Shown in pieces: positions 8,326-61,939 of a stretch of 64,000 nt of DNA. The stretch is from the NCBI GenBank assembly GCA_964610175.1, contig CAZSVE010000003.1, positions 2,193 through 66,192 on the forward strand. The letters run 5' to 3'. The position numbers and the translations under genes were made by a program. The DNA is from an uncultured Thiotrichales bacterium (lineage in GTDB: Bacteria; Pseudomonadota; Gammaproteobacteria; HK1). The notes beneath the pieces were generated by a model. It saw only the letters and a program-made list of their open reading frames with translations. It ran no database searches and had not been told where the DNA came from. Numbering within the stretch: position 1 is the first letter of the stretch; the number at the start of each line of letters is the position of its first letter.

Positions 8326-8437
8326 CTAGCGAAGCTTATGCTCGGACCGACAACGCATGACCCCGTATCGGTAAAGCGGAATCGGTGTCTTGTAAAACTT
8401 GATTCCAATTGTGAAGTCGAGCGGGAAATAAACAAAA
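8326..8437 (+). repeat. F1, full-length copy
   Basis: Reads CTAGCGAAGCTTATGCTCGGACCGACAACGCATGACC...TTGTAAAACTTGATTCCAATTGTGAAGTCGAGCGGGAAATAAACAAAA. Confidence 0.85.
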
Positions 8438-8550
8438 TAAATAAGTATATTCAAATGATGATGATAAGCTTAAAATTCTTGCTTTAGCAATTTGCGGCGA
8501 GTCGATCGAACCGGCAGTCCGAGGTTTCCTTCGAGCGAGAGGACCGTTTC

Positions 8551-8853: not shown

Positions 8854-9642
8854 ATGGTTCCTAAAGGTCGCGTTGCCCGTGCAACGCCACGGCAAAGATT
8901 CCACGATTGGCTTTCCCATCCCCCCGGAAGCATGTTATTGAATACCGAGGCAAGGCTGCTCGGTGATTCTCTCGGCTCTCTTTTTGGCTATCACCTCGTG
9001 CAGGTAGGCCGATTGAGTAATACGGACCTGCTGGCGCAGAGTAGAATTCCGCACCGCGTTATCGTGGAAATAGATAACAGTCGACAGGTTTCCGGTTATC
9101 CCCACCTTCGCGCCGAACCTGATGCCTTGCCCATGGCCTCCGACAGCATCGACGTAATCATCCTTCCCCACGTGCTCGAGTTCTCTCCCCACATGCAGGA
9201 AATAATCAAGGAAACGAAGCGGGTCCTGGTCGCGGAAGGACATCTACTCATCCTTGCCTTCGATGTCTGGAGTCTCGTTGGTATTTGGTCTCTGCTATTC
9301 GGGAAGGAAGGAGAGGAGCCCTGGATGCCTTGTCAGGGGGGACGATTCCCGGGTTTCGGTCGAGTCAAGGGGTGGATTACCGCCATGGGCTTCGACGTCA
9401 TTTCCGTGAAGCGATATTTTTTTCGACCGCCGATCCGCATGGGCAGCATTATGAATCATGGGAGAATTTCCGATCCGCTGCGTTTTCTCGACACCGTTGG
9501 CCCCCGTTTTTGGCCATTTTTCTCCGGTGCATACCTTTTGGTAGCGAAAAAGCGTGTAACGGCACTAACACCGAGGAAATCGCTGTGGCGACAACCGAAG
9601 CGACCTTTGATCGCGGTGGGGCTCGGGAGGCCTTCTTCGTAA
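8854..9642 (+). CDS. Class I SAM-dependent methyltransferase (YafS-like)
   Basis: 262 aa. Has the Methyltransf_11-type core (DVIILPHVLEFSPHMQEIIKETKRVLVAEGHLLILAF). N- and C-terminal patterns resemble the conserved gammaproteobacterial YafS-type protein. Confidence 0.65.
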   Translation: MVPKGRVARATPRQRFHDWLSHPPGSMLLNTEARLLGDSLGSLFGYHLVQVGRLSNTDLLAQSRIPHRVIVEIDNSRQVSGYPHLRAEPDALPMASDSIDVIILPHVLEFSPHMQEIIKETKRVLVAEGHLLILAFDVWSLVGIWSLLFGKEGEEPWMPCQGGRFPGFGRVKGWITAMGFDVISVKRYFFRPPIRMGSIMNHGRISDPLRFLDTVGPRFWPFFSGAYLLVAKKRVTALTPRKSLWRQPKRPLIAVGLGRPSS

Positions 9643-10213
9643 GTCGTATTCCCCCCTTCGGGGCAGTCGGATCGGGGACTTTCAAGTCCGACTACGCCGT
9701 GCCGCCCCGCCTGGGAGAGAGCTTTTGATTCCTACAGGTAGACTCGGCGCAACCGCAACGGATAACCGACTACCCTGTGCGTTCGCCTGTGCGCTCGGAG
9801 ATGGTCACCACGACACCATCGCCGGAGGCAGGCACGGTGTGCTCGGCATTGAGCGGCGATCGGGATTCATCCGTTCAGGATGCTCGGGTTTCAGAGCCGG
9901 CCTTGAAATCCCTCGTCATGGCGAGGCGGAAACCCGGCTGTGGCCTACAAAAGTGCACAAGGCCAAAAATCGCGGAGTGTAGCGGACTACATGACGCGGT
10001 TTTTGGCCTTGTTGTGTGATGCGGTGGGCCGCGAATCGGAGAGCACCGCGGTAGACCAGGAATATCGAGACAGGCTCTCGGGAAGGAACGGCAAGGGGAC
10101 TTGGGGATCGGCAGGAAACTCGGGGGACCTCACTTCGATGAACCATGCATGCATTTCGGCACTTATCTCAAGCACCCTGGCTCAAGTGCTTTGGCTCAAG
10201 CGTTTTTTATAAC

Positions 10214-10495: not shown

Positions 10496-10653
10496 GATTA
10501 CACTCGTATTTCGGTTGGATTAACGAGGTGCGAACTATGCGTTTTTACGCCCTTTTTGTCAAATCGAATCGGGAAATACAACGCTCGGCGATGGCTTGCG
10601 CCGTTTCGGCCAATCGCTGGGTAAAGAGTCGATAATCGCACCATGCTCGTTAA

Positions 10654-10763
10654 TTTGTTTATTTCCTGCTCAGCTTCACCATTGGATCAAGTTTTGCAAG
10701 GCACCAATCTCGCTTTACCAATATCGGGTCATGTGTTGTCGGCTCGAGGCGAAGCTTCGCTAG
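10654..10763 (-). repeat. F1, full-length copy (first of a head-to-tail pair)
   Basis: Reads TTTGTTTATTTCCTGCTCAGCTTCACC...GGCTCGAGGCGAAGCTTCGCTAG, the reverse complement of the F1 consensus. Confidence 0.85.
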
Positions 10764-23202: not shown

Positions 23203-23314
23203 CTAACGAAGCCTGTGCTCGAACCGGTGAAACATGATTGAGCCTTGGTAAGGCGGAATTGGCGCCTTGTAAAAACTTGATCCGATTGCGAAGCCGAGCG
23301 GGAAATAAACAACT
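23203..23314 (+). repeat. F1, full-length copy (second of the pair)
   Basis: Reads CTAACGAAGCCTGTGCTCGAACCGGTGAAACATGATTG...GCGAAGCCGAGCGGGAAATAAACAAC. It abuts the previous copy. Confidence 0.85.
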
Positions 23315-29102: not shown

Positions 29103-29207
29103 AAAGCTTCGCCTCGAACCGATGAGACATGATTCGGTAGTAGAGTAAAATCAGCGTGTTGTAAAACTTGATTCATTTGGGAATGCCGAGCGGGAAATAA
29201 AACAAAA
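29103..29207 (+). repeat. F1, copy (2 of 3)
   Basis: Reads AAGCTTCGCCTCGAACCGATGAGACATGATTCGG...GGGAATGCCGAGCGGGAAATAAAACAAAA. Head to tail with the previous copy. Confidence 0.85.
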
Positions 29208-29295
29208 TATTGGCAGCATAAATGATGCAAGAAATCACATTTTCCGATTCCGTGAGTGAAAAAGCGAACTTTTTCATCATCCTGATAGTGGAAGT

Positions 29296-29405
29296 CTGGC
29301 GAAGCTTGTGCTCGAACCGACAACGCATGACCCGGTATTGGCAAAGCGAGATTGGCGCCTTGTAAAACTTGATACATTTGTGAAGATGAGCGGGAAATAA
29401 ACAAA
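29296..29405 (+). repeat. F1, copy (3 of 3)
   Basis: Reads CTGGCGAAGCTTGTGCTCGAACCGACAACGCATGACCCGG...TGTGAAGATGAGCGGGAAATAAACAAA. Confidence 0.85.
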
Positions 29406-29564
29406 TTAGCTCTATCCTTCTCTTCGATGGCTTGCGCTTCTCCTCGATGATCTTCCTCTTTGCATTCGGTGCACCATTCCAGGGTAGCGCGGTTCCGGCG
29501 GGTTGGGATATATTTTTCGAAACAAGATCCGAAGAGACGACAAAGAAGGAGGGTTCGAGAGAAA

Positions 29565-30798: not shown

Positions 30799-30898
30799 CT
30801 GGCGAGGCTGCGCCTCGGACCAATGAAGCATGCTTTTGTATTAGTAAAGCACTCTTGAAATTCGATCCATTTGTAAAGCCGAGCGGGAAATAAACAAA
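30799..30898 (+). repeat. F1, copy
   Basis: Reads CTGGCGAGGCTGCGCCTCGGACCAATGAAGCATGC...TTTGTAAAGCCGAGCGGGAAATAAACAAA. Confidence 0.85.
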
Positions 30899-31062
30899 TC
30901 ATGTTGGTGCACAATCATATGGGTGGTACCCTGGAACCTTCCGGAAAGGACGAAGGGGCTACGCGCGCCCTGATCGGGGCCGGAAAGCTACTGGGAATCA
31001 TCGCATGGGATCATCCGATTATTTCGATGTTTCCTTTTTCACTAGCCGTTTAAGCACAAGTG

Positions 31063-39339: not shown

Positions 39340-40590
39340 TTACTTGGGTTGTGTCGAGATTTTACCCGGAGGACCGGTTGAAAACGCAGGGAAATCGAAA
39401 GTTGCATTTTTCGATTCCCGTCTCTGGAAAATACCGGGGATGGCTTTTTCAGAGGTTCCTTGGCGTATCGGGATTTTACCATCCTGCCCGATGTGCCGTC
39501 CCCACTCCGCAGCCTTCGAATCTTCCCGCGCCATTTCCGAAACCAGCGCATCGAAGCTGGTTTTGGGCACCCAGCCGAGTTTGTCTCTGGCCTTTGCGGC
39601 GTCGCCGAGTAGGTTGTCGACTTCGGTGGGGCGGAAATAACGCCGATCCACGGCCACCACTTCCCGGCCCAATAGCCTCTCCCCGATTGCGTCGCTGGCA
39701 CCTTCCATCCCGCTCAGGATACCCACTTCCTCGATGCCTTCTCCGCGCCATTCCAGGGACATCCCCAGGGCCTTGGCGGCGCGATTGACGAAATCGCGTA
39801 CCGAGTGCTGCACCCCAGTAGCGATGACGAAGTCTTCCGGGGCCGGTTGTTGCAGCATGAGCCACTGCATTTCCACGTAATCGCGGGCATGGCCCCAATC
39901 GCGCAGCGCATTCAGGTTGCCAAGGTAAAGTTTTTCCTGGAGCCCCAGCCTGATGCGGGCCAGTGCCTTGGTGATCTTGCGGGTGACGAAGGCCTCCCCG
40001 CGAAGCGGGGATTCATGGTTGAACAGGATTCCGTTGCAGGCATAGATCCCATAGGCCTCGCGATAGTTGACGGTGATCCAATGGGCGTAGAGCTTGGCCA
40101 CCGCATAGGGGCTGCGCGGATAGAATGGCGTGGTCTCTTTTTGCGGGGTTTCCTGCACCAATCCATAGAGTTCCGAGGTGGACGCCTGATAGAAACGGGT
40201 TTTGTGGGAGAGATCGAGCGTGCGGATGGCCTCCAGGAGGCGCAATGCCCCCAGTGCATCGGAGTCGGCGGTGTACTCGGGCTCCTCGAACGATACCGCC
40301 ACATGGCTTTGCGCCGCGAGATTGTAGATCTCGTCGGGGCGCAGCTTTGCGACGATGTGTACGAGACTGCTGGAATCGGTCATGTCGCCATGGTGCACGA
40401 AAAATGGCGTGCCGTTTTCATGGGCGTCGCGTAAGAGATGATCGATACGCGCCGTGTTGGGCAGGGAACTACGGCGCTTGACGCCGTGAACCTGGTAACC
40501 CTTGCCGAGGAGAAACTCTGCAAGCCAGGCACCGTCCTGACCGGTAATGCCGGTGATGAGCGCGATTTTTGTTGTCTGCTCCAGATTCAT
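39340..40590 (-). CDS. gmd: GDP-mannose 4,6-dehydratase
   Basis: Start set at [42 protein letters not shown] (the ATG at 40608 is also possible). Motifs QASTSELYG and YAVAKLY (YxxxK). Confidence 0.94.
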
Positions 40591-42085
40591 TTTCCCTGAG
40601 TGCTCCATTTTGGATGCTTCCCGAGTTGTTTGTTGCCCATTCCGACGCATCATCGGAATGCACAGTTGTTTGCGTGTAATCGTCTTCGAGACGTTCGATA
40701 TCGTTTTCGCCGAGATAACTACCGGTTTGGATCTCGATGATTTCGAGTTCGATTTTGCCGGGATTGCATAGGCGATGCACCTCGCCCGTCGGGATATAGG
40801 TGGATTGGTTTTCCGAAAGTAAAAAGGTCTCCGTGCCACGCGTCACCTCCGCCGTGCCCTTGACGACGATCCAATGTTCGGCACGGTGGTAATGCTTTTG
40901 CAGGCTGATGCCTGCGCCAGGTTCGATGGTGATGCGCTTGACCTGGAAACGCTCTCCGCTATCCACGTGATCGTACCAACCCCACGGGCGCACTACCCGA
41001 CGATGGACCAGGTCCTCGCCGTATTCATTCCCTTGCAGCCGCGTCACTACGTCCTTGATCTCGTCCGCCCGCTGGCGGTGCGCTACCAGTACGGCGTCTT
41101 GCGTGTCTACGACGAGTAGATCCTGGGTGCCCAATGCCACCACGGGGCGATGCGGGGCGCGGATGTAGGTATTGCTGGCAAGGTGGGCGATGCCCTGACC
41201 ATGGAGACGATTGCCTTGCGAATCGGCGGGCGTTAGATGTGCCACGGCGTTCCAACTGCCCACATCGCTCCATTGACCATGGAAGGGGACCACGGCTATC
41301 GGGGTGTGTTTTTCCATGACGGCGTAATCTATGCTCTGCGAGCGGCAGGCATGGAAGGCGGCCGCTTCGGGACGCACGAAATCGAGGCCGTCGCCGGCGA
41401 TCTCCCGATGTGGCCGGGTCATGGCCGCCTGGCAACTTCGCAGGATATCGGGGGCGTGCCGGGCCAATGCCGCCAGCAGGGTATCGGCGCGGGTGAGGAA
41501 AATGCCGGCATTCCAAAGCGCGTCCCCTCGAAGGACGAGGGCCCTGGCCCTGGCGTCGTCCGGTTTCTCGATGAAGCCGCGTACCTGGCGACTGCCGTCC
41601 GGGCGCCTTGGGCCTTGCAGAATATAGCCATAGGCAACGCTGGGAGAGGTGGGCGTCACGCCGAATGCGACGATGAGGCCGGCTCTGGCGGCGGCCATGC
41701 CGTTTCGCATCGTCCCGATGAAGGCCCATGCATCGGGGATATGGTGATCCGAGGGACAAAACAGCAAGAGGGCCTCGGGTTGTTCCTTTTGCCGTGCATG
41801 CAAGGCCGCCAGGGCCATGGCCGCGGTGGTATCGCGGGCCACCGGCTCCAGAATGATGGGGCCGGTCACGTTGGCGGCTTGCATGGCATCGATGACGAGA
41901 AAGCGATGCCCCTCCGCCGCCACCACGCACACGACCTTGCCCCCGAAGGCGGACACGCGTTCCAGGGTGGTCTGTAGCAGGCTTTTGTCGCCGATGAGCG
42001 GCACGAATGGTTTGGGAAGGCTGTTGCGGCTCAAGGGCCATAAGCGACTACCGGAACCGCCGCAAAGAACTACGGGAGTGATCAT
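40469..42085 (-). CDS. manC: Mannose-1-phosphate guanylyltransferase / mannose-6-phosphate isomerase
   Basis: 538 aa. N-terminus [20 protein letters not shown] and a cupin domain ([43 protein letters not shown]). The ORF continues ~60 aa beyond the usual ...ERLEDDY end and overlaps the gmd start. Confidence 0.9.
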
Positions 42086-42276
42086 GGAGCACGGGTTTTG
42101 TCGTTTTGGGGGGAGAAGACGCTTCTCCCGGCGTTATTTCGACTGGAAGTGGTTCTCTTCGATTATGAAAGAAAATCGGTGGTTGGTGCACACCAACCCC
42201 TCACCTTCCATAAATGTGAGGCAATTGGGAGCTTTATAAGACAGATACGAAGCGGAAGATGGGACGGAGTCAATAA

Positions 42277-42376
42277 TTTGTTTGTTTCCCGCCCAGCTTC
42301 ACGATTGGATCGAGTTTTACAAGGCACGAATTCCGGGTTACCAAGCCTCGATGATGTTTCATCGGTTCGAGGCTAA
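42277..42376 (-). repeat. F1, copy truncated at its 5' module by the rpn duplication boundary
   Basis: Reads TTTGTTTGTTTCCCGCCCAGCTTCACGATTGGATCGAGTTTTACAAGG...CATCGGTTCGAGGC. The homology stops just before 42381. Confidence 0.8.
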
Positions 42377-42437
42377 CCACGTTAGCAATATATTCGCCTT
42401 GGCTACATGAGATAATCTTGTATTCTTACCAACCTAC

Positions 42438-43430
42438 TTGGCAAACCCTACCTTGACCAACGATATCGCCCAGCCCCACGATCACTTCCTGAAGGAACTG
42501 CTCTCCTACCCGGAGCAGGCCGGAACCCTGCTGCGGGAACGTCTTCCTTCCGCGGTGGTAAAATTCCTGTCCCCCAAGCCGCCCAAGCTGGTTCCGGATT
42601 CCTTCGTGGACAAAGCACTGCGCGATCACCTCTCCGATCGACTCTTCGAAGTGGAGACCATCAACGGTAAAACTGCCTTTCTTTACGTGCTTATCGAACA
42701 CAAGAGTGCACCGGACGGCAAAGTAGGCTGGCAGTTGTTCAGATACCTGGGCGAGATCCTGAAGCAATGGGTAAAGGAAAATCCGAATTGGGATCACCTG
42801 CCGGCCATCGTGCCGTTGCTCTTCTACCATGGCGAAAGGGAATGGAAGATCCCCAACGAATTCCTGCACCTGGTAGACTTCGAGGAAAGCTGGCGACCAT
42901 ATCTTTTGAACTTCCAATTTCCGGTGCTGGATCTTGGTGTCATTCCGGATCGAAAATTATCCGAGGACCGCCGCCTGCAGGCCCGGCTGCTGGCCATGAA
43001 GTACGCCACCAGAAGGACGCAGCAGTTGGCGGTAAGGGCGAGCTTGATCGAGGCGCTCAAAAACGCCCCCGAGGATCTTCGCACCGTCATTCACTACCTG
43101 ATATCCACTTACATCTATGATGAACAAACCCTGCGCGGAATCATCCGAGCAGTGAAACCAGAGGAGGAAAATCAAATGATGTCCCAGTTTGCCCAGGACA
43201 TTCGCCAGAGAGCCTTGCAGGAAGGTGTACAACAAGGCATGCAACAAGGCCGACAGGAAGGTCTGTTGGAAGGGGAAGCGAAACTACTGCTTCGTCAGCT
43301 TTCCCATCGGTTTCAGCCTTTGCCCGACGAAATCACCGAGCGAATCCACGGAGCCAACCCGAACGCCATCGAAACATGGGCAAAGCGCGTACTGGACGCC
43401 AAATCCCTGGACGAAGTCTTCTCGGAATAA
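42438..43430 (+). CDS. Rpn/YhgA-like recombination-promoting nuclease / putative transposase (PD-(D/E)xK, C-terminal DUF4351-like), copy 1
   Basis: 330 aa. N-terminus PHDHFLKELLSYPEQAGTLLRERLP and core SDRLFEV...FLYVLIEHKS, typical of the Rpn (transposase_31) family. Confidence 0.85.
   Translation: MANPTLTNDIAQPHDHFLKELLSYPEQAGTLLRERLPSAVVKFLSPKPPKLVPDSFVDKALRDHLSDRLFEVETINGKTAFLYVLIEHKSAPDGKVGWQLFRYLGEILKQWVKENPNWDHLPAIVPLLFYHGEREWKIPNEFLHLVDFEESWRPYLLNFQFPVLDLGVIPDRKLSEDRRLQARLLAMKYATRRTQQLAVRASLIEALKNAPEDLRTVIHYLISTYIYDEQTLRGIIRAVKPEEENQMMSQFAQDIRQRALQEGVQQGMQQGRQEGLLEGEAKLLLRQLSHRFQPLPDEITERIHGANPNAIETWAKRVLDAKSLDEVFSE
43161..43178 (+). promoter_or_regulatory. Internal Shine-Dalgarno + ATG inside rpn copy 1 (possible internal translation start)
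   Basis: GAGGAGG at 43161-43167 lies 8 nt upstream of the in-frame ATGATG at 43176. Copy-to-copy divergence begins 27 nt downstream. Confidence 0.4.
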
Positions 43431-43823
43431 TCCGTCCCCTGATCGCCCGCCTCTGGGAAAATTCACGGCTCATTGCAGGGAATCCGTCCCTGTTCCTGCC
43501 CGGCTGGAAGGGAGATTCACGCCCAAAAATCCGTACCACGACTTCAGGCCTTATCTCCCTCATAGCTCGGCTTATCCGGGCGTATCTCGTGAAAACGTGG
43601 TGCAACTCGTCGTTTCCAAGGCATTGATAAATGGAAGGAATATGGCAGACTGCCAAGCAGTCTACCAATCAGGTGATCGGAAGCGTCCAGTAGCCTCATC
43701 ACAAATCCCTGCTTTGCACGCAGGCGCAGACGTATAGTTCGTGGAACCTGGAGAGAAACAATTCATGTTAGTAATATATTCGCCTTGGCTACATGAGATA
43801 ATCTTGTATTCTTACCAACCTAC

Positions 43824-44828
43824 TTGGCAAACCCTACCTTGACCAACGATATCGCCCAGCCCCACGATCACTTCCTGAAGGAACTGCTCTCCTACCCGGA
43901 GCAGGCCGGAACCCTGCTGCGGGAACGTCTTCCTTCCGCGGTGGTAAAATTCCTGTCCCCCAAGCCGCCCAAGCTGGTTCCGGATTCCTTCGTGGACAAA
44001 GCACTGCGCGATCACCTCTCCGATCGACTCTTCGAAGTGGAGACCATCAACGGTAAAACTGCCTTTCTTTACGTGCTTATCGAACACAAGAGTGCACCGG
44101 ACGGCAAAGTAGGCTGGCAGTTGTTCAGATACCTGGGCGAGATCCTGAAGCAATGGGTAAAGGAAAATCCGAATTGGGATCACCTGCCGGCCATCGTGCC
44201 GTTGCTCTTCTACCATGGCGAAAGGGAATGGAAGATCCCCAACGAATTCCTGCACCTGGTAGACTTCGAGGAAAGCTGGCGACCATATCTTTTGAACTTC
44301 CAATTTCCGGTGCTGGATCTTGGTGTCATTCCGGATCGAAAATTATCCGAGGACCGCCGCCTGCAGGCCCGGCTGCTGGCCATGAAGTACGCCACCAGAA
44401 GGACGCAGCAGTTGGCGGTAAGGGCGAGCTTGATCGAGGCGCTCAAAAACGCCCCCGAGGATCTTCGCACCGTCATTCACTACCTGATATCCACTTACAT
44501 CTATGATGAACAAACCCTGCGCGGAATCATCCGAGCAGTGAAACCAGAGGAGGAAAATCAAATGATGTCCCAGTTTGCCCAGGACATTAGAAAAACTGCC
44601 CTGCAGGAAGGTCGGCAGGAAGGTCGGCAGGAGGGTTGGCAGGAAGGTCGGCAGGAAGGAGAAGTGAAAGGAGAAGCGAAAATGCTACTACGTCAGCTCT
44701 CCCGTCGCTTTCACCCCTTGCCCGATGAAATCACCGAGCGGGTTTATGGAGCAGACCCGAACATCATTGAGAGTTGGGTTGATAGGGTACTGGACGCCAA
44801 ATCCCTGGACGAAGTCTTCTCGGAATAA
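43824..44828 (+). CDS. Rpn/YhgA-like nuclease, copy 2
   Basis: 334 aa, identical to copy 1 through ...EENQMMSQFAQDI. The C-terminal ~65 aa then diverge and include (QEGR)n 12-bp repeats. Confidence 0.85.
   Translation: MANPTLTNDIAQPHDHFLKELLSYPEQAGTLLRERLPSAVVKFLSPKPPKLVPDSFVDKALRDHLSDRLFEVETINGKTAFLYVLIEHKSAPDGKVGWQLFRYLGEILKQWVKENPNWDHLPAIVPLLFYHGEREWKIPNEFLHLVDFEESWRPYLLNFQFPVLDLGVIPDRKLSEDRRLQARLLAMKYATRRTQQLAVRASLIEALKNAPEDLRTVIHYLISTYIYDEQTLRGIIRAVKPEEENQMMSQFAQDIRKTALQEGRQEGRQEGWQEGRQEGEVKGEAKMLLRQLSRRFHPLPDEITERVYGADPNIIESWVDRVLDAKSLDEVFSE
44547..44564 (+). promoter_or_regulatory. Internal Shine-Dalgarno + ATG inside rpn copy 2
   Basis: The same GAGGAGG-N8-ATGATG arrangement as in copy 1, 1386 bp downstream. 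Confidence 0.4.
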
Positions 44829-45067
44829 TCCGTCCCCTGATCGCCCGCCTCTGGGAAAATTCACGGCTCATTGCAGGGAATCCGTCCCTGTTCCTGCCCG
44901 GCTGGAAGGGAGATTCACGCCCAAAAATCCGTACCACGACTTCAGGCCTTATCTCCCTCATAGCTCGGCTTATCCGGGCGTATCTCGTGAAAACGTGGTG
45001 CAACTCGTCGTTTCCAAGGCATTGATAAATGGAAGGAATATGGCAGACTGCCAGGCAGTCTACGAAC

Positions 45068-45104
45068 CAGGCGGTCGGGAGTTCGAATCTCTCCGGGCGC
45101 GCCA
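45068..45104 (+). other. tRNA 3'-end fragment (T-arm + acceptor 3' strand + CCA; tRNA-Arg-like), att-site-like remnant
   Basis: Reads GGCGGTCGGGAGTTCGAATCTCTCCGGGCGCGCCA: T-stem GGGAG/CTCTC, T-loop TTCGAAT, then CGGGCGC-G-CCA. No matching 5' acceptor strand (GCGCCCG) lies within 100 nt upstream. A degenerate version sits at the equivalent place after rpn copy 1 (~43668-43700). Confidence 0.6.
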
Positions 45105-45274
45105 TTTTTCTTTAGGAATCAAAGAGATAGATAGCAACGAGGGAGAGACGTTCAGATCAATCTGTACCACGGATTCGAAGTTGTACCACGAATTCAACCC
45201 CATCCCTGCGTTTCATCCCTGTTTCAGGGGATGAAATCCCCTGAAAAGTGCGCTAACAAAAGGCCTTCCGGCCA

Positions 45275-45632
45275 CTATCCGATTCCTTTTCCCGGCTGTA
45301 CCCGTTCCGGTTTCCGACGATAAACCCGCTGGGTGGTGCGTGGGTCCGCGTGGGTAAGAAGGGCCCTGGCATGCTCCAGGGTCTCGGCGTCGGAAGCGCA
45401 TTTGGCGCGCAGATCGTGCTCCGTGAAGCGATTGTCCACCTTCGTCTCGGCGAGCACTTTATTTATTTCCGGCCATGAAGCGCTTCCACATGGACTCCCA
45501 GCCATTGGCGCTGCCCTTCTCCTCGTTGACATACCCCCGGCCGTCCCGGGTGCAGGAAAGGAATGGAGCGATATCCACCGGACGCGCGGCCAACGCCCCG
45601 TCCACGGTGGCCCGCAGTTCCGGGGTCCATCC
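45275..45632 (-). pseudogene. Tyrosine recombinase/integrase remnant (5'-truncated and frameshifted)
   Basis: The C-terminal catalytic region is readable (RFTEHDLRAKCASDAETLEHARALLTHADPRTTQRVYRR). The preceding segment (GWTPELRATVDGALAARPVDIAPFLSCTRDGRGYVNEEKGSANGWESMWKRFM) is in another frame. Homology stops at the F1 repeat at 45633. Confidence 0.7.
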
Positions 45633-45743
45633 CTAGCGAGGCTTCGCCTCAAACCGACAAGGCATGGTCGAGTATTGATAAAGCGAGATTGGCGTCTTGT
45701 AACACTTGATCCAATTGTGAAGCTGGGCAGGAAATAAAAAAAT
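45633..45743 (+). repeat. F1, full-length copy
   Basis: Reads CTAGCGAGGCTTCGCCTCAAACCGACAAGGCATGG...TTGTGAAGCTGGGCAGGAAATAAAAAAA. Confidence 0.85.
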
Positions 45744-45756
45744 AGCAGTACGAACG

Positions 45757-46441
45757 TCATGGTTGGATCGGTGCGATCGAATCGAAGTCGGGCACCTGGG
45801 GGTGTGGCAGACCTTCCGTCGGTTTACCGTTGCGGACTAGTTGGCAGGTGGTCATGCCAGCCTCGCGGGCGGCGTCCAGCTCCTGCTCGGTATCGGACAG
45901 GAACAGGATCTCGTTGGGGGTGGGGCCGATGCGTTCGGCGATGGCCCTGTAGGAGGCCACCTCGTGCTTATGACCGACCCTGGTATCGAAGTAGTCGTCG
46001 AACAAGGGGGTCAGGTTACCGACATCGCTGTAGCCGAACAGCAGTTTTTTGTGCCTGCACGGAGCCGGAGGAGTAGACGTAGAGCCGCAGACCGGCGGCG
46101 TGCCACTGGCGCAGGTTGCGTACCGCATCTTCATGGACATGGCCGGTAAAGTCACCCTGCTGGTAGCCGCGTTGCCACAGCATGCCCTGTAGGTTTTTCA
46201 GCGGCGTGGCCTTGCGGTTTTCGGCGATCCAACGCTTCAGTACTTCCACCACCTCGTCGTCGTCGAGTGAATGTCCCAGCTCTTCGGCTACCGCCCGCAG
46301 TTCGGTTCGCACCACGGCCTCGCCGCCATGTTCCGCCACGAATCTTGCCATGTGGTCACGGGCGTAGGGAAAGAGCACGTCGAACACGAAGGCGATGGAA
46401 GTGGTGGTATCCTCGATATCGGTGAGAATGGCGTTGATCAT
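45757..46441 (-). pseudogene. mtnC: Enolase-phosphatase E1 / acireductone synthase, interrupted by a 1-nt frameshift (or sequencing error)
   Basis: The N-terminal part is in ORF 46016..46441 (MINAILTDIEDTTTSIAFVFDVLFPYA...YVYSSGSVQAQK). The continuation is in ORF 45757..46155 (LLFGYSDVGNLTPLFDDYFDT...FLSDTEQELDAAREAGM). The frames switch at the T6 run at 46045-46050. Confidence 0.8.
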
Positions 46442-47073
46442 GGCCCGGCTCCCGTGCGTGTATTTTTCTGCATGGTCAACATGCGCAGTTTACAGTCGAA
46501 CAGAAATTCGAAGGCCTCTACATGGCGCAGGGCATCCTCGACGCTTTCGCCCCAGGTGTAGAAGCCGTGCCCCCTGATCAGATAGCCAAGCAATGAGCCA
46601 TCGATGTCCATATCATGATCCACCACGGTGGCAAGGCGTTCGATGTCCTGATCATTGGCGAAGATCGGCACTCGCACCCGGCGGGTATGGCAATCGACGC
46701 CAGAAAATGCCTTGAGTAGCTCGTAGTCCTGCAATAACAGGGTGCCTTGATGCAATTCGGAGACCAGGGTGGCATTCGCCGAATGGTGGTGCAACACCGA
46801 GTTGATCTCGGGAAGGCGGCGATAGGCCTGCACATGGAGTTGGGTTTCGGCGGAAGGGGTGCGATTATCCAGGGAGTTGCCCCGCACATCGGTTATGAGT
46901 AGATCGTCACGCGTTAGTTTGCCCTTGTGGCGCCCGGATACCGTGATCAGTAGCCTGCCGTCCGGCAGGCGGGCGGAGAGATTGCCGCTGGTGGCCGGTA
47001 CCATACCCTGCCGGTAGAGTAGTCGGCCTGCCTCGATAAGGGAATCGGCCAGTTGGTCTGTAGTGGTGTTCAT
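46438..47073 (-). CDS. mtnB: Methylthioribulose-1-phosphate dehydratase (class II aldolase/adducin fold)
   Basis: Start set at MNTTTDQLADSLIEAGRLLYRQGMVPATSGNLSAR. The rest is collinear with MtnB (ETQLHVQAY, NSVLHHHS, GYLIRGHGFYTWG). Its stop overlaps the mtnC start by 4 nt. Confidence 0.88.
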   Translation of the reverse strand: MNTTTDQLADSLIEAGRLLYRQGMVPATSGNLSARLPDGRLLITVSGRHKGKLTRDDLLITDVRGNSLDNRTPSAETQLHVQAYRRLPEINSVLHHHSANATLVSELHQGTLLLQDYELLKAFSGVDCHTRRVRVPIFANDQDIERLATVVDHDMDIDGSLLGYLIRGHGFYTWGESVEDALRHVEAFEFLFDCKLRMLTMQKNTRTGAGP

Positions 47074-47257
47074 GGGCGAAATCGATCGTTGTGCGTATTT
47101 TCCGATTTGAAAATGATACGTGTGTGGGCAAGTCCTGCATAGGGTAATATTCGCAAGCCCTGCCCGCCCGGGGCCGAGCCATTGGTCAAACACGGTTGCA
47201 TCTTTTCAAGGACGCATTTTGACCGGAAGAGGTTCTCTTTTTTTATTGTGACAGTAT

Positions 47258-47457
47258 ATTTTGTTTATTTCCCGCTCGGCTTGTGCTCGATCCGACAAGG
47301 CACGATTCGCCTGGCTCCCGAGCTTCTGGCTTGGGAGCATGGATCGTGGAAGCCCCAGCTTTCGGAAAAGCCTCCCAGTCTCCCGCTTGGGGGGCAAGCG
47401 GAGCTGGCGTTTCGTGAAATCCGGCTCATCGGCAAAGCCGAGCGGGAAATAAACAAA
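47258..47457. repeat. F1-derived composite (reverse 3' module + forward 5' fragment + unrelated insert + forward 3' module)
   Basis: Reads ATTTTGTTTATTTCCCGCTCGGC | TTGTGCTCGATCCGACAAGGCACGATTCG ... | ...CGTGAAATCCGGCTCATCGGCAAAGCCGAGCGGGAAATAAACAAAG. Confidence 0.7.
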
Positions 47458-47497
47458 GTAATAATTCCTTCGGTCCAACGTGATATCCACTGGAATT

Positions 47498-49951
47498 GCC
47501 ATGTCTTTTTCTTTACGCAAGCCACTTGAGCGAAGAAGTCCTCGTGAAGTCATCCTGATCGTGTCGGCGGCGGTGGTGTTGTATTTTTTGCTTTCCCTGA
47601 TGACCCATCATCCTAATGATCCCGGTTGGTCGCATAGCGCCGAAATCGAACGCATCGAGAATAGTGGTGGCCCGGTCGGTGCCTGGATCGCCGATCTGTT
47701 TTTTTATCTCTTTGGCTATCCGGCATACCTGTTCCCATTGTTGCTGGGTGTCATTGGTTGGTTGATATTCCGATTGTCCGGCGAAGGGGGTCGGTCCAAT
47801 CCGTGGTTTGTCATCGTTCGGGGTAGCGGATTTTTGCTGACGCTGATGGCGAGCTGCGGACTTGCGGCGACCCACTTCGGCGGGAGCGAGGTACTACCGG
47901 TGGATAGCGGGGGGATGTTGGGGAAGGTAATCGGTATCGGCCTGTTCCGGTCGTTCAATCCTCTCGGTGGAACGCTTGCGTTGCTTGCCATGTTTCTGAC
48001 AGGGATCACCCTGCTTACCGGTGTCTCCTGGCTTTGGCTGATGGACAATACGGGACGTTGCACATTGTTCCTTGCCGATAAGCTCCAGCGTGTCATTTCC
48101 ATCGGGCACGAATATTACCTGTCGAGCGGGCTCCGCGACACCCAGGCGGAGCTGGGTCGAACCGCGGGCAGGAAGCTCATGGGATTTCTCCAGGAGAAGA
48201 TCGGTGACGGGAAACCGCCGCAACCTCGCATCGAACCCGGTGGTATCGGGCCACTGACGTTCGATCCCGACGTGGATATAAAGGAAAAAAGGCAGTACAT
48301 GGGAGGCGGGCACCGCGTGGAAAAGCGGGGTGAGCAACGGTCATCCACGTCCCGGGAACAGCCGTCCCGGGGGCAACCATTCAAGCCCAGGGAACAGTCG
48401 TCGAAATCCCAGGAAACCATTTCCGGGGGCGCCTTGCCGCCCATTTCCCTGCTCGATCTCCCCGAAACCCCGATGCACACCGTCACCGACGAGGCATTGG
48501 GGGACATGTCGCGACAGGTGGAGGAAAAGCTCGGCGACTTCGGGATCGAGGCCCAAGTCGTGGCGGTATACCCGGGCCCCGTCATCACCCGCTTCGAGGT
48601 CGATCTCGCCCCGGGAACCAAGGTGAGCCGGATCACCGCGCTCGCCAAGGATCTTGCCCGCTCCCTCTCCGTGATCAGCGTGCGCATCGTGGAAGTAATC
48701 GCGGGAAAGAGCGTCATCGGTCTCGAATTGCCCAACGAGCAGCGCGATCTGGTCAGGTTGAGCGAGATACTCCATTCCCACGAGTACAAGAACTGTATTT
48801 CGCCACTTACCCTGGTATTGGGAAAAGACATCGCCGGGCGTTCCGTGGTGGCCGATCTCGCCGGTATGCCCCATCTCCTGGTGGCGGGAACCACCGGCTC
48901 CGGGAAATCGGTGGCCATCAACGCCATGATACTGAGCCTGCTCTATAAGGCCAGCGCCGATGACGTGCGCATCATCATGGTGGACCCCAAGATGCTGGAA
49001 CTCTCGGTCTACGAGGGCGTCCCCCATCTTCTGGCCCCGGTGGTCACCGACATGAAAGAAGCGGCGAACGCGCTTCGCTGGTGTGTCGCCGAGATGGAGC
49101 GCCGCTACAAGCTCATGTCCAGCCTGGGGGTGCGCAACATGGCCGGATTCAACCGAAAAGTTCGGGAGGCCAGCCGCGCCGGGAGGCCCATCCCCGATCC
49201 GTTCTATGCCCCTCCCCCCTGGGAGCCATCCTTCGATGAGGAGGATGGCGGTGATCCACCCGAGCCACCGACCCTGGAACCATTGCCCGCTATCGTCGTT
49301 ATCGTCGATGAGCTGGCGGACATGATGATGGTGGTCGGTAAAAAGGTCGAGGAACTCATCGCACGCCTCGCCCAAAAGGCACGCGCCGCCGGTATCCATC
49401 TCATCCTCGCCACCCAGCGGCCCTCCGTGGACGTGCTCACCGGCCTCATCAAGGCCAATATCCCCACCCGGATCGCCTTCCAGGTCTCGGCAAGGGTGGA
49501 TTCGCGCACCATTCTCGATCAAATGGGCGCGGAGCAACTTCTTGGGCACGGCGATATGCTCTATCTCGCCGCTGGCAAGCCCATGCCTACCCGTGTGCAC
49601 GGCGCCTTCGTGGCCGATGGAGAGGTACACAAGGTGGTGGAACATCTCAAGCAGCACGGGAGCCCCAACTATCTCGACGAAATCCTCTCGGGCGGCGTCG
49701 ATGGCGTATCCGAGGAAGGGGGCATCATGGGGGATAGCGACGACACCGAGTCCGATCCCCTCTACGATGAGGCGGTACGCATCGTTACCGAGACCCGGCG
49801 CGCCTCCATCTCCGGGGTGCAGCGGCGGCTCAAGATCGGCTACAACCGGGCGGCACGCATGGTGGAACAGATGGAGATTGCCGGTGTGGTAGGGCCCCTG
49901 GAATCCAACGGCAACCGCGATGTCCTGGCCCCGCCGCCACCGGAGGATTAG
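47498..49951 (+). CDS. ftsK: DNA translocase FtsK
   Basis: Start set at [10 protein letters not shown]. It has N-terminal TM helices, a Pro/Gln-rich linker, the motor domain (Walker [10 protein letters not shown], Walker [13 protein letters not shown]) and a C-terminal gamma domain ([26 protein letters not shown]). Confidence 0.95.
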
Positions 49952-52646: not shown

Positions 52647-53786
52647 ATGCGACTGAAATCCGTTGAATACACTGAACGCCAAGGTACGCTCCAGGAGTGG
52701 ACGCTGCGCGGATTGACCCTGGAGGATATCAACCTGCTGGTGGGCAAGAACGCCTCCGGCAAGAGCATGATTCTTAATATTATCCACGGGGTTGCCCATG
52801 GAATTGTCGGCAGGCGCCCGCCGCCTACCCATGAACATTTTACGTTTGTATTCGACGAAAACGAGCTGGAAACCAGATACGAGTTAGGAGCCGAGAATGG
52901 AAAGCTCGTTTCTGAATGCTTTACGGTGGACAACGAGGTCAAGCTGGAGCGCGGCCCAGGGGGCGTAGGCAGAATCCATGCCGAGAAGGAAGGAAAATTT
53001 ATCGAGTTCCAGACCCCGGAGGACCAACTGGCTATCGCTGCCCGACGCGATACCCTCCAGCATTCGTTCTTCGAGCCGATGAGTCAGTGGGCCGATTCGC
53101 TGTATTTCTATGCGTTCGGTACCCCGTTGGGGAAAGATCGCGGGGCGGTACTCACCGATGATATATCGGGCGTGGATTCCAAGGATCCATCACAAGTAGT
53201 CGCTATTTTTCACAAAGGAAAAAGGCAATTCGGCGACAAATTCATCGATGCGGTGCGGGAAGACTTCAAGGTGGTCGGCTACGCCATCGACGACATCGGA
53301 CTCACGACGCCTCTTCGTTATATGGGAATGAATGCGCCAATCTCTGGTAGCGAATTGTTGGTGATCTATGTCCAGGAGGCCGGCCTGCCAGGGATTACCG
53401 AGCAAACCGAAATGTCTCAGGGAATGTTCCGCGCCCTGTCTCTCATCATCCAGATCGATTACGCCGTCCTCGTCGGCACGCCGAGCTGCATCCTCATCGA
53501 CGATATCGGCGAGGGACTGGATTTCGAGCGCTCCGTGAATCTCATCGATGTCCTGATAAAAAAGGCCAAGAACTCCGCCGTGCAGCTCATCATGGCCAGC
53601 AACGATTCCTTCGTCATAAACCATGTGCCTTTGGAGGTCTGTGCCTTTGTCGACCGACAGGACAACCATGTGGAGATCCGGAATTATGCCAACTCCAGGG
53701 AGATCTTCGACCGCTTCCAGTTTACCGGCCTCAACAACTTCGATTTCCTGGCCTTCGATTACCTGCGTGCGGAGGTCGAGGAATGA
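52647..53786 (+). CDS. ABC/AAA-type ATPase (AAA_21/AAA_15-like, SMC-fold)
   Basis: 379 aa. Walker A LLVGKNASGKS, signature-like MSQGMFRALSLI, Walker B SCILIDDIGEGLD. There is a long insert between Walker A and the signature, as in OLD/AbiL/PARIS-type ATPases. Confidence 0.8.
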   Translation: MRLKSVEYTERQGTLQEWTLRGLTLEDINLLVGKNASGKSMILNIIHGVAHGIVGRRPPPTHEHFTFVFDENELETRYELGAENGKLVSECFTVDNEVKLERGPGGVGRIHAEKEGKFIEFQTPEDQLAIAARRDTLQHSFFEPMSQWADSLYFYAFGTPLGKDRGAVLTDDISGVDSKDPSQVVAIFHKGKRQFGDKFIDAVREDFKVVGYAIDDIGLTTPLRYMGMNAPISGSELLVIYVQEAGLPGITEQTEMSQGMFRALSLIIQIDYAVLVGTPSCILIDDIGEGLDFERSVNLIDVLIKKAKNSAVQLIMASNDSFVINHVPLEVCAFVDRQDNHVEIRNYANSREIFDRFQFTGLNNFDFLAFDYLRAEVEE

Positions 53787-54574
53787 ACGGGTCCGAGGTG
53801 AATAAGTCGATGGTCAATAAGCTGGCCATCTTCGTGGAGGGCCGTACAGAGCAGATCTTCGTGGAGAGATTGGTTCGCTTCCTCGGGGAGAGTGTAGATC
53901 TGGCCATCCGCGTCGATGGCGCGGAAGGGGGACGACACAAACCTCGTCGTTTTATCCGGATGAGCGGAACCAGGGAAACGGAGGGATATGAGTTCTTCGT
54001 TCTCATCGTGAATTGTGGCCAGGACGCACGCGTCAAATCGGATATTCTGAAACGCTACAACCGTTTAGTCAGCCAGGGCTACCGCTACATCATCGGAATC
54101 CGCGACGTCCATCCCCATGACCGGAAAGATACCCACCATATTCGGCAAGGATTCCAGTTCGGATTACCCACCACGCCATGCAAGCCGGTCTTGATCCTGG
54201 CCATCATGGAGATCGAGGCTTGGTTCCTGGCCGAATACGCGCACTTTCCCCGCATCCACCCGAGCCTCACCAGGGCGCGAATCGGACGGGAATTCGGCTT
54301 CGATCCCGCCGAGGACGACATGCAGCTTCGCGACCACCCGGCCAGGGATCTGGAAGCCATCTACTTCCTGGAGGCAATCCCCTACGCAAAGAGCCGCGAA
54401 AACGTGGAACGAACCGTGGATAGCCTGGATTTTTCCCGTATCCGAGACGAGGTGGCGGCACGGATCGCCGATCTTGCAAGATTGACGGGGCTGATTCGGG
54501 CCTTTTTCACGTATTCCGAACAAACCGACAAGGTGTGCGATGAGTCCCTCCCTCGACCACGGCTGTCTGTGTAG
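53783..54574 (+). CDS. DUF4276-like (Toprim-like) protein
   Basis: 263 aa. Its start overlaps the ATPase stop (ATGA at 53783-53786). N-terminus LAIFVEGRTEQIFVERLV, acidic block IGIRDVHPHDRKD and MEIEAWFLAEY match my recollection of the DUF4276 pattern (VEGxTE...EFEAW). The stop codon TAG is supplied by the first bases of the F1 repeat at 54572. Confidence 0.68.
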   Translation: MNGSEVNKSMVNKLAIFVEGRTEQIFVERLVRFLGESVDLAIRVDGAEGGRHKPRRFIRMSGTRETEGYEFFVLIVNCGQDARVKSDILKRYNRLVSQGYRYIIGIRDVHPHDRKDTHHIRQGFQFGLPTTPCKPVLILAIMEIEAWFLAEYAHFPRIHPSLTRARIGREFGFDPAEDDMQLRDHPARDLEAIYFLEAIPYAKSRENVERTVDSLDFSRIRDEVAARIADLARLTGLIRAFFTYSEQTDKVCDESLPRPRLSV

Positions 54575-54683
54575 CGAGGCTTCGCTTCGAGCCCACAAGG
54601 CATGATCCATGCGGCTGGTGAAGCAAAACCGGTGTTTTGTAAAACTCGACTTGTCTGCGAAGCCGAGCGGGAAATAGACAAAG
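54572..54683 (+). repeat. F1, full-length copy
   Basis: Reads GTAGCGAGGCTTCGCTTCGAGCCCACAAGGCATGATCC...CTGCGAAGCCGAGCGGGAAATAGACAAAG. Confidence 0.85.
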
Positions 54684-55252
54684 TAGGCGCATCATCGTGG
54701 AGATCTGAAAAGGCCGGGCAATGGGATGTCTGACCGGAACTGACCCTGGAATCGGTGTCGGCATGGTCCCCGATATCGCGGTCTGTGAGGAGGCTGCGCT
54801 CCAGTGGGATTTTCGGGAAGATGCCATCGAAAGATGTCATGGAATGCGCCGTGTTTCCAAGGCGGGTCATGGAGGTGATCTCCCCCAGCCAATCCATCCA
54901 TGACCTGATGCAAAAAGCGGAAAAATTTCTACGGGCCGATATTCCGGACAATCTGTACCATAGAGTCGGAGGGAAGAATGATTATCATGGGATCGATTAT
55001 CGGAACAACCCCGTGTTTGCCACTGCCTATCTGGCCGAGGAAAACGAACATGAATCGATGAAATGGCTCGATGTCGAATTTCGGGATTTCTTTCTATGAA
55101 TTCGTGTTGTTTGTCGGTCTTTTCCCAGTAAGAAACCGCAATCTCCAGGAGTATCCATGACACCAATCGGATCGTCTCATTCCCTATCATGGGGTTCGCC
55201 ATATTCAGGGTCATATTCGGGACCATATTCAAGAGGGCATGCGCCTGGATAT

Positions 55253-55981
55253 ATGCCTCCTCGCCCATGCCGATACCGTGGGCGGCCTTCGACGGCAGTG
55301 CAGGTTTTCCTGCTTCTATGCTGCGTTCTATCGTTCCTGTGTCCTATGCCGGGTCGCGCCGAGACCGATGCCTCCCCGGTGATTTTGGAGCACCTGAACC
55401 GGTTTCTCCAGGAGGTCGACACCCTGGCGGCGAATTTCGAACAGGCCCTGTTCGATGAGGAAGGGCAATCCCTGGAGGATTCCAGGGGGATTGTGTATCT
55501 GGCGCGCCCGAAACGGTTCCATTGGGCATACGAGGAACCCTATGAACAGACCATCGTGGCCGATGGGAAGCGGGTATGGTTTTATGACAAGGACATTGCC
55601 CAGGTCATCGTAAAGCCCTGGAATTCCTTTTCACCGGACACCCCCATTGCCCTCCTGACCATGGCCCGACCTTTGGAGGAGATCTTCGTTGCCAGGGAGA
55701 TCGCGCCTGAGGAAATGGCCATGGGGGCGAGGTCTTCACGGCAATGGGTCCGGTTGACGCCGAAATCCTCGGAGGCCACGTTCGTCGACATCAGGCTGGG
55801 GCTCGGCAAGGAAACCGTCGAGGTCATGGAGCTGTCCGACAGTTTCGGACAGCTAACGCGGCTTACGTTCTCGAAGGTAGTCACCAATCCGAAATTGGAT
55901 CCCAAGATCTTTTCCTTCACGCCACCGGAAGGCACCGACGTGGTGGGCCTGGATGTCGAGGGTAAAAAATCGCATCCCTGA
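55253..55981 (+). CDS. lolA: Outer-membrane lipoprotein carrier protein LolA
   Basis: Track ORF 55157..55981, with the start uncertain. The mature part is collinear with LolA (LNRFLQEVDTLAANFEQ, GIVYLARPKRFHWAYEEPYEQTIVADGKRVWFYD, IFSFTPPEGTDVVG). Confidence 0.86.
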   Translation: MPPRPCRYRGRPSTAVQVFLLLCCVLSFLCPMPGRAETDASPVILEHLNRFLQEVDTLAANFEQALFDEEGQSLEDSRGIVYLARPKRFHWAYEEPYEQTIVADGKRVWFYDKDIAQVIVKPWNSFSPDTPIALLTMARPLEEIFVAREIAPEEMAMGARSSRQWVRLTPKSSEATFVDIRLGLGKETVEVMELSDSFGQLTRLTFSKVVTNPKLDPKIFSFTPPEGTDVVGLDVEGKKSHP

Positions 55982-60770: not shown

Positions 60771-61939
60771 ATGATGAAAAGAGTGTGCATATATTGCAAT
60801 AAAGAAAAGCCGAAGGATGAATTCTCTTTAGAACATATATTTCCGGATGCATTAGGCGGAGCATTATGTTCGGATGTATTCAAAACAAGAAGGGTATGCA
60901 GGCAGTGTAATTCAATTTCCGGTCTATTCGTAGATGGCGCTCTTATCAAGAATTTCTTTATTCAGAACGACTTGGCGGAGTCTGCGCTGAATTACATAGA
61001 TCTGGAAAAACCAGCCTCCTTACCACTCAGATATATGGGACCAGTCGATAACCTTACGATAGGTGACGATTTATCATGTGATTCATGGTTTGGGCCTCAT
61101 GGTGGCCTAATTTATCATAGAAGGAAAAAAGCGGATACGAAATATGACACAATAGCAGGTGGAAATCCCATCGATAATAAGAAGTTTAGGGGCGAGATAT
61201 ATATCTTCGCTCAAAATGAGGACATGTATTGGAATAAAGTACTGCTATTGTCAGCATATATATATTTCAAGCATGCACGCCGTATTTCAGGAAACTTTCC
61301 AGAATCTTCGGTAACTTTTGACAATAACGGTGAACGGCCATATTTCGATGAACCCACGGAAAATGAAAAGGCGTTTTTGGAAGAGATCAAAAACATTCAA
61401 GGGAAAAAACACGAAGGGAAATTCGCTGTTCAAATAGGCTTTGAACAACGTTTCCTGTGCAAATTGCGTTGGCTTTTGGGACCAATATACTTGGGGAGCA
61501 ATTCCTTGCATCGGAATACGCGACAAATCTTAGAAACGCATTCTGGGAAAAAGATGTCAACCGAGGGAAAATACATGGTGTCGATTTTTCCCACTTCTTC
61601 AACGGTCTTGGTTCTGAATATCCTATGAAATTGTTTACCTGGGATGGTGTCCACACTATTCTGATTTATCCGACGGACGATGTACTATTTGGGTTTATAT
61701 TTCTCTTTGGGAAGAGAACGATGAGTATCCCTATCGCCAAGGATCGGGATCTATGGAAAGATAAAATAACTCATCCCCAGGTATATGTTATATGCCAACC
61801 ACTGGGTAAATTCGTCGGCCCAATCTCCCTTGGAGATTTTCCCGCCCATCGAACCGGGGATGCACCAATTAGCGAACTCGAAGAGATAGAAAAGAAGCAC
61901 TTCGATCCAAGCACTTTGCCAAAGATCACTCAAGTTTAA
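60771..61939 (+). pseudogene. HNH endonuclease-domain protein, split by one frameshift (or sequencing error)
   Basis: N-terminal HNH/Zn motif [25 protein letters not shown]...CRQCNS in ORF 60771..61628. The continuation ([19 protein letters not shown]...) is in ORF 61457..61939. The frames switch near 61455-61470. Confidence 0.7.

Follow-up and report, generated by a model that had tools for sequence, protein, structure and literature searches.

The stretch of DNA considered here (the window) comprises 64,000 nucleotides (nt) from an uncultured Thiotrichales bacterium (assembly GCA_964610175.1, contig CAZSVE010000003.1, positions 2,193 to 66,192) and contains two tandem genes of the Rpn nuclease family, whose features and flanking elements are listed in Table 1. 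Both gene products match PF04754 (Transposase_31, PD-(D/E)XK) over residues 12–210, with E-values of 8e-55 and 1e-54 and scores of 186 and 185.5 bits in copies 1 and 2 (cut-off 21), and both match DUF4351 (PF14261) near the C-terminus, with 36.2 and 28.4 bits (cut-off 25), which agrees with the original prediction of Rpn/YhgA-like nuclease genes at this site. The NCBIfam models matched include RpnA, Rpn subfamily, and TIGR01784. BLASTP against RpnA of Escherichia coli K-12 gives 28% identity (E 1e-24), and residues D15, D67, E87, and K89 align with RpnA D11, D63, E82, and Q84, the mutation of which abolishes activity (Kingston et al., 2017, PMC5350276). Across 33 homologs of 44–94% identity, D15 (PHD), D67, and E87 are conserved in at least 90% and K89 is invariant, and by this alignment the PD-(D/E)XK catalytic residues are intact in both copies. 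The nearest database relatives (65–87% identity) are named Candidatus Kentrum, a sulfur-oxidizing symbiont of Kentrophoros ciliates, and the next are Magnetococcales (40–58% identity); the bacterium itself is an uncultured symbiont of the Kentrum type. Single Kentrum bins yield several distinct rpn paralogs, and exact-protein look-ups of P0001, P0005, and P0121 returned no contig on record.

Table 1. Features of the tandem rpn locus and its flanks (positions in the window; an empty cell means that no value applies or was given).
Feature	Position	Strand	Remark
Repeat unit 1 (leader, rpn gene 1, conserved 3' region)	42378..43683	+	aligns with 43764-45081
Repeat unit 2	43764..45081	+	aligns with 42378-43683
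Spacer joining the two units, unique, 80 bp	43684..43763		identical in L008
rpnL-1, full-length Rpn nuclease	42438..43430	+	330 aa from TTG 42438
rpnL-2, full-length Rpn nuclease	43824..44828	+	334 aa
PF04754 (Transposase_31 / PD-(D/E)XK) domain, copy 1	42471..43067	+	residues 12-210
Internal Shine-Dalgarno GAGGAGG, copy 1	43161..43167	+	
Internal Shine-Dalgarno GAGGAGG, copy 2	44547..44553	+	
rpnS-1, predicted small protein from internal ATGATG	43176..43430	+	84 aa
rpnS-2, predicted small protein from internal ATGATG	44562..44828	+	88 aa
Divergent cassette A	43203..43388	+	codons 256-317
Divergent cassette B	44589..44786	+	resembles tail of paralog P0004
Four-residue repeat array, copy 1: QEGV QQGM QQGR QEGL LEGE	43218..43277	+	begins 14 residues after internal Met
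12-bp DNA tandem repeat, copy 2: QEGR QEGR QEGW QEGR QEGE VKGE	44603..44681	+	one unit fewer in L008
Conserved non-coding 3' region of unit 1	43431..43683	+	present downstream of paralogous rpn genes elsewhere
Fragment like tRNA 3' end (T-arm + acceptor strand + CCA: GGGAGTTCGAATCTCTC CGGGCGCG CCA)	45060..45095	+	unit 2 runs into the fragment
Truncated or frameshifted tyrosine-integrase remnant	45275..45760	-	PF00589, E 0.08, C-terminal part of model
Dispersed ~100-nt repeat	42270-42395 (+), 45633-45743 (-), 23218-23312, 10651-10753, 29311-29408, 29108-29212, 8370-8439, 30858-30902, 54637-54685		

The genes lie in direct repeat units with a period of 1386/1398 bp, and local alignment of the two units reveals segments of very different divergence. 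Over the first 825 bp the only mismatches are at positions 42380 and 42386, after which 816 bp (42387–43202) covering the 5' leader and codons 1–255 contain no mismatch at all. The divergent block that follows (186 bp in copy 1 and 198 bp in copy 2) has 53 mismatches and is longer by 12 bases in copy 2, and is succeeded by a second mismatch-free stretch of 267 bp (43389–43655) consisting of the last 13 codons, the stop codon, and 225 bp beyond it; at 43656–43683, 6 of 28 positions differ, and similarity stops there. With 0 mismatches in 1083 bp and 53 in 186 bp, this mosaic is not due to chance. The original prediction described the units as nearly identical over the first ~820 bp, codons 1–255 included, which holds, and as identical again for ~280 bp downstream of the stop; the second identical stretch does exist, but measures 267 bp and begins 42 bp before the stop. 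The proposed diverged block of ~190 bp with one 12-bp unit of difference is likewise present, but it encodes residues 256–317 and not the very last ~65 residues. The placement of a Shine-Dalgarno (SD) sequence GAGGAGG 8 nt before an in-frame ATGATG, with the block starting 27 nt after the first ATG, is borne out in both copies (ATGATG at 43176–43181 and 44562–44567).

Such an internal start has a precedent in E. coli, where every rpn gene contains an in-frame internal start that gives rise to a small protein, RpnS, equivalent to the C-terminal domain, and RpnS binds to RpnL, the full-length and toxic nuclease, and inhibits it in a cognate-only manner (Zhong et al., 2023, PMC10400941). The ATGATG of the window genes (M247/M248) aligns with RpnA M244, which was proven by mutagenesis to be the start of RpnAS (Zhong et al., 2023, PMC10400941). 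In the 33 homologs M247 and M248 are conserved in at least 90%, and S249, F251, and A252 are invariant. Among 74 distinct relatives from genomes and metagenomes (25–100% identity), a match to the SD of at least 5 nt, located 3–12 nt upstream, precedes the boundary methionine (within 12 residues of the domain boundary) in 57 of 74 genes, compared with 23 of 284 other internal methionines of the same genes (Fisher p = 5e-32), and raising the threshold to 6 nt leaves 44/74 versus 4/284. Of the 19 close-subfamily genes, 18 spell the Glu-Glu-Glu before the internal start as GAG GAG GAA, and GAG accounts for 37 of the 38 codons of the two glutamates that underlie the SD, versus 37.6% GAG elsewhere in the same open reading frames (ORFs); the Pro codon beside the SD uses all four synonyms. 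Since GAG is favored at the SD codons and the SD is conserved across relatives, the internal start appears to be under selection at the nucleotide level, and the SD is evidently held by synonymous-site constraint. The one exception among the 19 genes (L019, ~3700, Ga0209681_1000072), alone in having GAA where the SD has GAG, also lacks the first ATG (ATA ATG), and its gene is divided between frames; it probably represents a copy in decay. In both window copies a short inverted repeat (ATGTCC...GGACAT; 43179–43201 and 44565–44587) extends from the second internal ATG, and may pair the start codon in the mRNA or merely reflect the conserved MSQFAQDI codons.

The start of the full-length protein is of a different kind. 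Ahead of the essential D15 the reading frame holds no ATG, and rpnL must therefore start at TTG 42438 or TTG 42453, neither of which is preceded by an SD; the database copy of rpnL-1 begins at the latter (325 aa), and the full-length starts of close paralogs are GTG or a weakly placed ATG. A weak start for the putative toxin together with a strong start for the putative antitoxin fits the published greater abundance of RpnS relative to RpnL (Zhong et al., 2023, PMC10400941).

In E. coli, the number of four-residue repeats in the long first helix of RpnS sets cognate specificity, and these repeats begin 8–20 residues past the initiating methionine (Zhong et al., 2023, PMC10400941). The window tails contain repeats of this type from residue 15 of RpnS, with five units in copy 1 and six in copy 2, where the 12-bp array amounts to 4.8 copies with 91% matches, and the number of units varies widely among homologs. 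Additional expansions occur just after the internal methionine in the Kentrum relative P0029 and in P0010, P0020, P0022, and P0027, in which a 12-residue unit, KSQFAEEIERKV, is present up to six times, so the tail region appears to vary by at least two repeat types and not by four-residue units alone. An AlphaFold2 (AF2) model of RpnS-1 alone, built with 29 homologous tails (mean predicted local distance difference test (pLDDT) 87.6), has helices at residues 4–46, 51–59, and 62–72, and the full-length model, which is mediocre (pLDDT 69), has a single helix at 241–292 running over the internal start and the repeats and then two short helices. The predicted arrangement of one long and two short helices matches the way in which the RpnAS crystal structure is described in words, namely as a unit of three helices of which the first is long (Zhong et al., 2023, PMC10400941).

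Codon comparison of the two copies separates the history of the tails from that of the nuclease domain. Codons 256–317 differ at a proportion of 0.66 of synonymous sites (pS) and 0.19 of nonsynonymous sites (pN), with a ratio of nonsynonymous to synonymous rates (dN/dS) of ~0.14 (Nei-Gojobori), and the helical part past the repeats alone gives pS 0.59 and dN/dS 0.17, whereas not one difference occurs in the 255 N-terminal or the last 13 codons. The tails are distinct in repeat number, in repeat sequence, and at 14 residues of the remaining helices. Because near-saturated synonymous sites adjoin sequence of zero divergence, the nuclease part and the block have different histories, the block being an old cassette that was swapped in or retained; rapid positive selection after a recent duplication is ruled out as its source by the same two observations. 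The hypervariable C-terminus of the original prediction stands insofar as the tails differ in repeats and helices, but a dN/dS of ~0.14 does not indicate rapid point mutation. The tail of P0004, a paralog at locus L005, shares 84% nucleotide identity with cassette B, equal to the N-terminal identity to P0004, and only 77% with cassette A, and the cassette A protein resembles the tails of P0002 and P0005; these similarities point to tails that were exchanged or retained as units among paralogs.

A second strain provides an independent view of the pair. The 79-kb contig L008 (ENA ERZ3929068), from another sample and reached by exact-cluster look-up, is syntenic with the window, with flanks 98.4–99.3% identical, and contains the same two rpn genes, both intact and joined by an identical 80-bp spacer, with the cassettes in the same order. 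The tandem structure, being present with the same gene arrangement, spacer, and cassette order in a separate assembly, is no assembly accident. In a four-way comparison of both copies in both genomes, 24 sites within 42387–43202 agree between the copies of one genome and differ between genomes, and none has the orthologous pattern; two further sites in the 3' region behave as the 24 do. The block has the reverse distribution, with 55 sites of the orthologous pattern and no substitution between strains, and its sole difference is that copy 2 of L008 lacks one 12-bp unit (QEGW), so that the gain or loss of one such unit is the only recent change in the block seen between the strains. Most of the 24 sites fall into two patches, 42735–42775 and 42935–42977, where the L008 residues are those of paralog P0002. 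Because the nuclease domains are identical within each genome and differ between genomes while the cassettes are unchanged, these comparisons suggest a nuclease domain homogenized by gene conversion alongside two lasting tail specificities.

Taken together, the locus most probably represents two tandem RpnL/RpnS modules whose nuclease parts are apparently identical and whose tails are two old cassettes. The original prediction of a toxin with an intragenic antitoxin is strengthened by the comparison, since the ATGATG occupies the position of RpnA M244, the SD is conserved, and the four-residue arrays differ, and the published findings it drew on (a toxic nuclease, an in-frame intragenic antitoxin, and phage defense) are confirmed in the work on E. 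coli, where RpnP2 guards against T-even phages (Zhong et al., 2023, PMC10400941). In the proposed mechanism, each gene would be translated from its weak TTG without an SD into a full-length PD-(D/E)XK DNA endonuclease, RpnL, and from the strong internal SD and ATGATG into an RpnS of 84 or 88 aa with the same sequence as the helical domain at the C-terminus of RpnL. If E. coli RpnA, RpnB, RpnC, and RpnP2 are taken as the model, RpnS would bind the same domain in RpnL by its long first helix and hold the presumably toxic nuclease inactive until a stress, presumably phage infection, frees it. Each RpnS would fit only an RpnL with matching repeats, and the two copies should not interfere with each other because their tails differ in repeat number, repeat sequence, and 14 helix residues, so that the locus would encode two mutually non-interfering toxin-antitoxin pairs. 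Gene conversion would keep the nuclease domain and the 3' flank alike within a genome, including patches derived from dispersed paralogs, and the cassettes would remain separate, altered chiefly through slippage of the 12-bp repeat. No phage-encoded RpnS mimics turned up when viral contigs were scanned with the RpnS alignment.

A bolder form of this proposal, which we advance tentatively and hold to be rather less than an even chance, is that the pair is an actively maintained two-specificity array, in which conversion between the copies and from at least four dispersed paralogs unifies the toxin domain and 3' region while selection separates orthogonal cassettes that are exchanged as units and drift by 12-bp slippage. 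If so, the locus would be a natural demonstration of selection for orthogonality between co-resident Rpn modules, and would indicate that Rpn diversifies through cassette shuffling, not point mutation. The type of system, the internal antitoxin, the variation in four-residue repeats, and the tandem arrays are already published, and a literature search found no work on Rpn arrays after the 2023 papers. The present comparison extends the RpnL/RpnS gene-within-gene system to an uncultured lineage of sulfur-oxidizing ciliate symbionts (Candidatus Kentrum) and to Magnetococcales, and adds unusually clear nucleotide-level comparative evidence that the internal ribosome-binding site is constrained in a distant clade. 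Beyond the published main text, it adds two-strain evidence of concerted evolution of the nuclease domain in a tandem array whose tails stay distinct, which is what would be expected if co-resident modules must not cross-inhibit, an idea raised in the commentary by Koonin. If confirmed, the pair would offer a handy natural setting in which to study the specificity of RpnS-RpnL pairing, with the same toxin domains and only the tails differing.

Several observations weigh against two functional modules or against parts of the proposed history. No promoter, internal ones included, was found by a sigma-70 scan of 42100–45300. One sequence search and two Foldseek searches of the PDB gave no significant match and did not retrieve the RpnAS crystal structure, the query being small and all-helical. 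GDP-mannose genes flank the pair on one side and methionine-salvage/ftsK genes on the other; these immediate neighbors are housekeeping genes and not a classical defense island, and PADLOC, which has no Rpn model, gave only a weak "putative invertase" candidate match. The persistence of the cassettes could stem from a mismatch barrier to conversion and not from selection. Both contigs are short-read assemblies, and a collapse of the 816-bp and 267-bp repeats could inflate the identity within each genome, which would weaken the argument for gene conversion.

The last of these points can be extended into an alternative explanation, which we regard as unlikely although it is the best of the rivals, namely that the tandem is real and that the perfect nuclease identity and the within-genome agreement arose when near-identical repeats were collapsed in short-read de Bruijn assemblies. 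The 816-bp identical stretches are longer than typical reads, both contigs have SPAdes-type or metagenome names, and the differences between strains are concentrated in few patches, each of which could be a popped bubble; on the other hand, about five patches would all need to have been resolved in one direction in one sample and in the opposite direction in the second, both assemblies have the cassettes in the same order, and the unique 80-bp junction and the unit-specific single nucleotide polymorphisms at 42380 and 42386 demand two copies. The junction, the two polymorphisms, and the agreement of the two assemblies secure the tandem structure but not the perfect identity.

The flanks of the pair bear on its mobility. 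The ~250 nt after each rpn stop (43431–43683 and 44829–45081) are 75–81% conserved at L005 9012–9260 and L007 8991–9236; a small gene in this region is ruled out by the lack of codon-position periodicity and by indels that are not multiples of three, and its RNA fold z-score is only -1.9. The tRNA-like fragment at the end of unit 2 belongs to no complete tRNA or transfer-messenger RNA gene detectable by ARAGORN or Rfam, and is not derived from the tRNA-Ser of the window. Paralog P0004 (L005, ~9240–10100) has the same fragment downstream, followed by a frameshifted integrase-like ORF. The fragment and the integrase may be the remnant attachment (att) site of an integrative element, and their recurrence behind P0004 suggests that rpn moved as att-proximal cargo of small integrative elements, a possibility for which the combined block of rpn, 250-nt region, tRNA-like fragment, and integrase would be the mark and which agrees with the published idea that rpn genes hitch-hike. 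The dispersed ~100-nt repeat is present in at least eight copies in the window (72–83% identity, some higher over shorter fragments), and two inverted copies (42276–42376 and 45643–45743) bracket the rpn pair and the integrase remnant; no Rfam match to it was found in 40000–48000, the span that holds these two copies. A repeat search and the unit alignment, in which the two copies of this dispersed repeat were the only inverted pair, found no terminal inverted repeats or target-site duplications at the borders of either unit, as was also the case for the units of Zhong et al. (2023, PMC10400941), and an insertion sequence-type element at the pair is therefore not supported.

These features form part of the case for a reading that we consider slightly less likely again, in which the pair is debris of a selfish or decaying mobile element, two copies of a transposase-like element that arose by unequal recombination beside an integrase remnant, with the tail difference a neutral by-product of recombination among paralogs and the pair and its internal ATG without function. 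The family was historically annotated as transposase, many paralogs occur in Kentrum genomes, a tRNA-like fragment and an integrase pseudogene adjoin both this pair and a paralog at another locus, and the ~100-nt repeat flanks the pair. Debris of this kind is difficult to reconcile with two ORFs that are intact in two strains, with intact catalytic residues, with a dN/dS of ~0.14 in the block, and with synonymous-site constraint on the SD, and the bare borders of the units speak against it as well.

The modules of the window, as we read them, share with E. coli RpnA-E and the plasmid-borne RpnP2 the PF04754 domain with aligned catalytic residues, the in-frame internal SD and ATG at the same domain boundary, a C-terminal DUF4351-type helical domain, four-residue repeats in the same 8–20-residue position and of variable number between strains, and tandem arrays, which in E. 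coli formed by direct duplication (Zhong et al., 2023, PMC10400941). They differ from RpnA in the low identity already given and in a canonical K, not Q, at the third catalytic position, and from the E. coli systems in the motif PEEExxMMSQFAQDI, common to the Kentrum and Magnetococcales relatives, in the TTG start without an SD, and in array members with apparently identical nucleases and old distinct tails, a pattern absent from the main text of Zhong et al. Tandem rpn genes also occur in the relatives L001, L052, L053, L057, and L079, and an rpn gene followed by a stand-alone RpnS-like ORF in the distant relatives L025 (3937–4461) and L031 (1455–1805), arrangements as published for E. coli; the stand-alone ORF of L025 contains two DUF4351-like tails fused in tandem. 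The window resembles the rpnE-ypaA and rpnC-rpnCSs loci in having more than one RpnS-type product, except that its second tail belongs to a complete second nuclease gene and not to a stand-alone small gene. Polymorphic toxins such as Rhs and CdiA-CT/CdiI likewise combine a freely recombining conserved body with divergent C-terminal cassettes tied to their own neutralizer, but they are secreted inter-bacterial toxins with separate immunity genes, whereas here conservation lies in the toxin domain and the variable tail would itself be the neutralizer.

The gain or loss of a 12-bp, four-residue unit in a helix also alters specificity in the HsdS subunits of EcoR124I and EcoR124II (TAEL repeats), where the repeat spaces the half-sites of a DNA target, while here it most likely serves protein-protein pairing. 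That the main role of the tail is to bind DNA or to space targets, and that the two copies are nucleases of different DNA specificity in the manner of EcoR124I/II, is very improbable, for although the domain is small and helical with four-residue repeats, and Zhong et al. (PMC10400941) note an HHpred resemblance to helix-turn-helix motifs and themselves draw the EcoR124 parallel, the strongly conserved internal SD and ATG argue that it is also made as a separate protein, and the nuclease is blocked by the small protein in E. coli, where cleavage by RpnA lacks sequence specificity (PMC5350276, PMC10400941).

Further genes of the window were recorded in passing. Downstream of the region, what looks like the enolase-phosphatase gene (mtnC-like) is broken up into a pair of overlapping ORFs that use different frames (45757–46155 and 46016–46441, both on the minus strand), as it also is in L008 (13399–14083), and is either a frameshifted pseudogene or the result of a sequencing error common to both assemblies. 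About 8 kb from the rpn pair, an AAA_21 ATPase gene resembling AbiLi/AriA (52647–53786; PADLOC E 2e-14 and 1e-12) overlaps the gene of a 263-aa partner without a family match (53783–54574). These two genes lie with P460-like and DUF3782 genes between ftsK (47480–49951) and lolA (55157–55981), and may be a two-gene defense system in an insertion hotspot. At 60771–61628 lies the gene of a 285-aa protein that has an HNH_5 endonuclease domain (E 1.6e-15) at its N-terminus.

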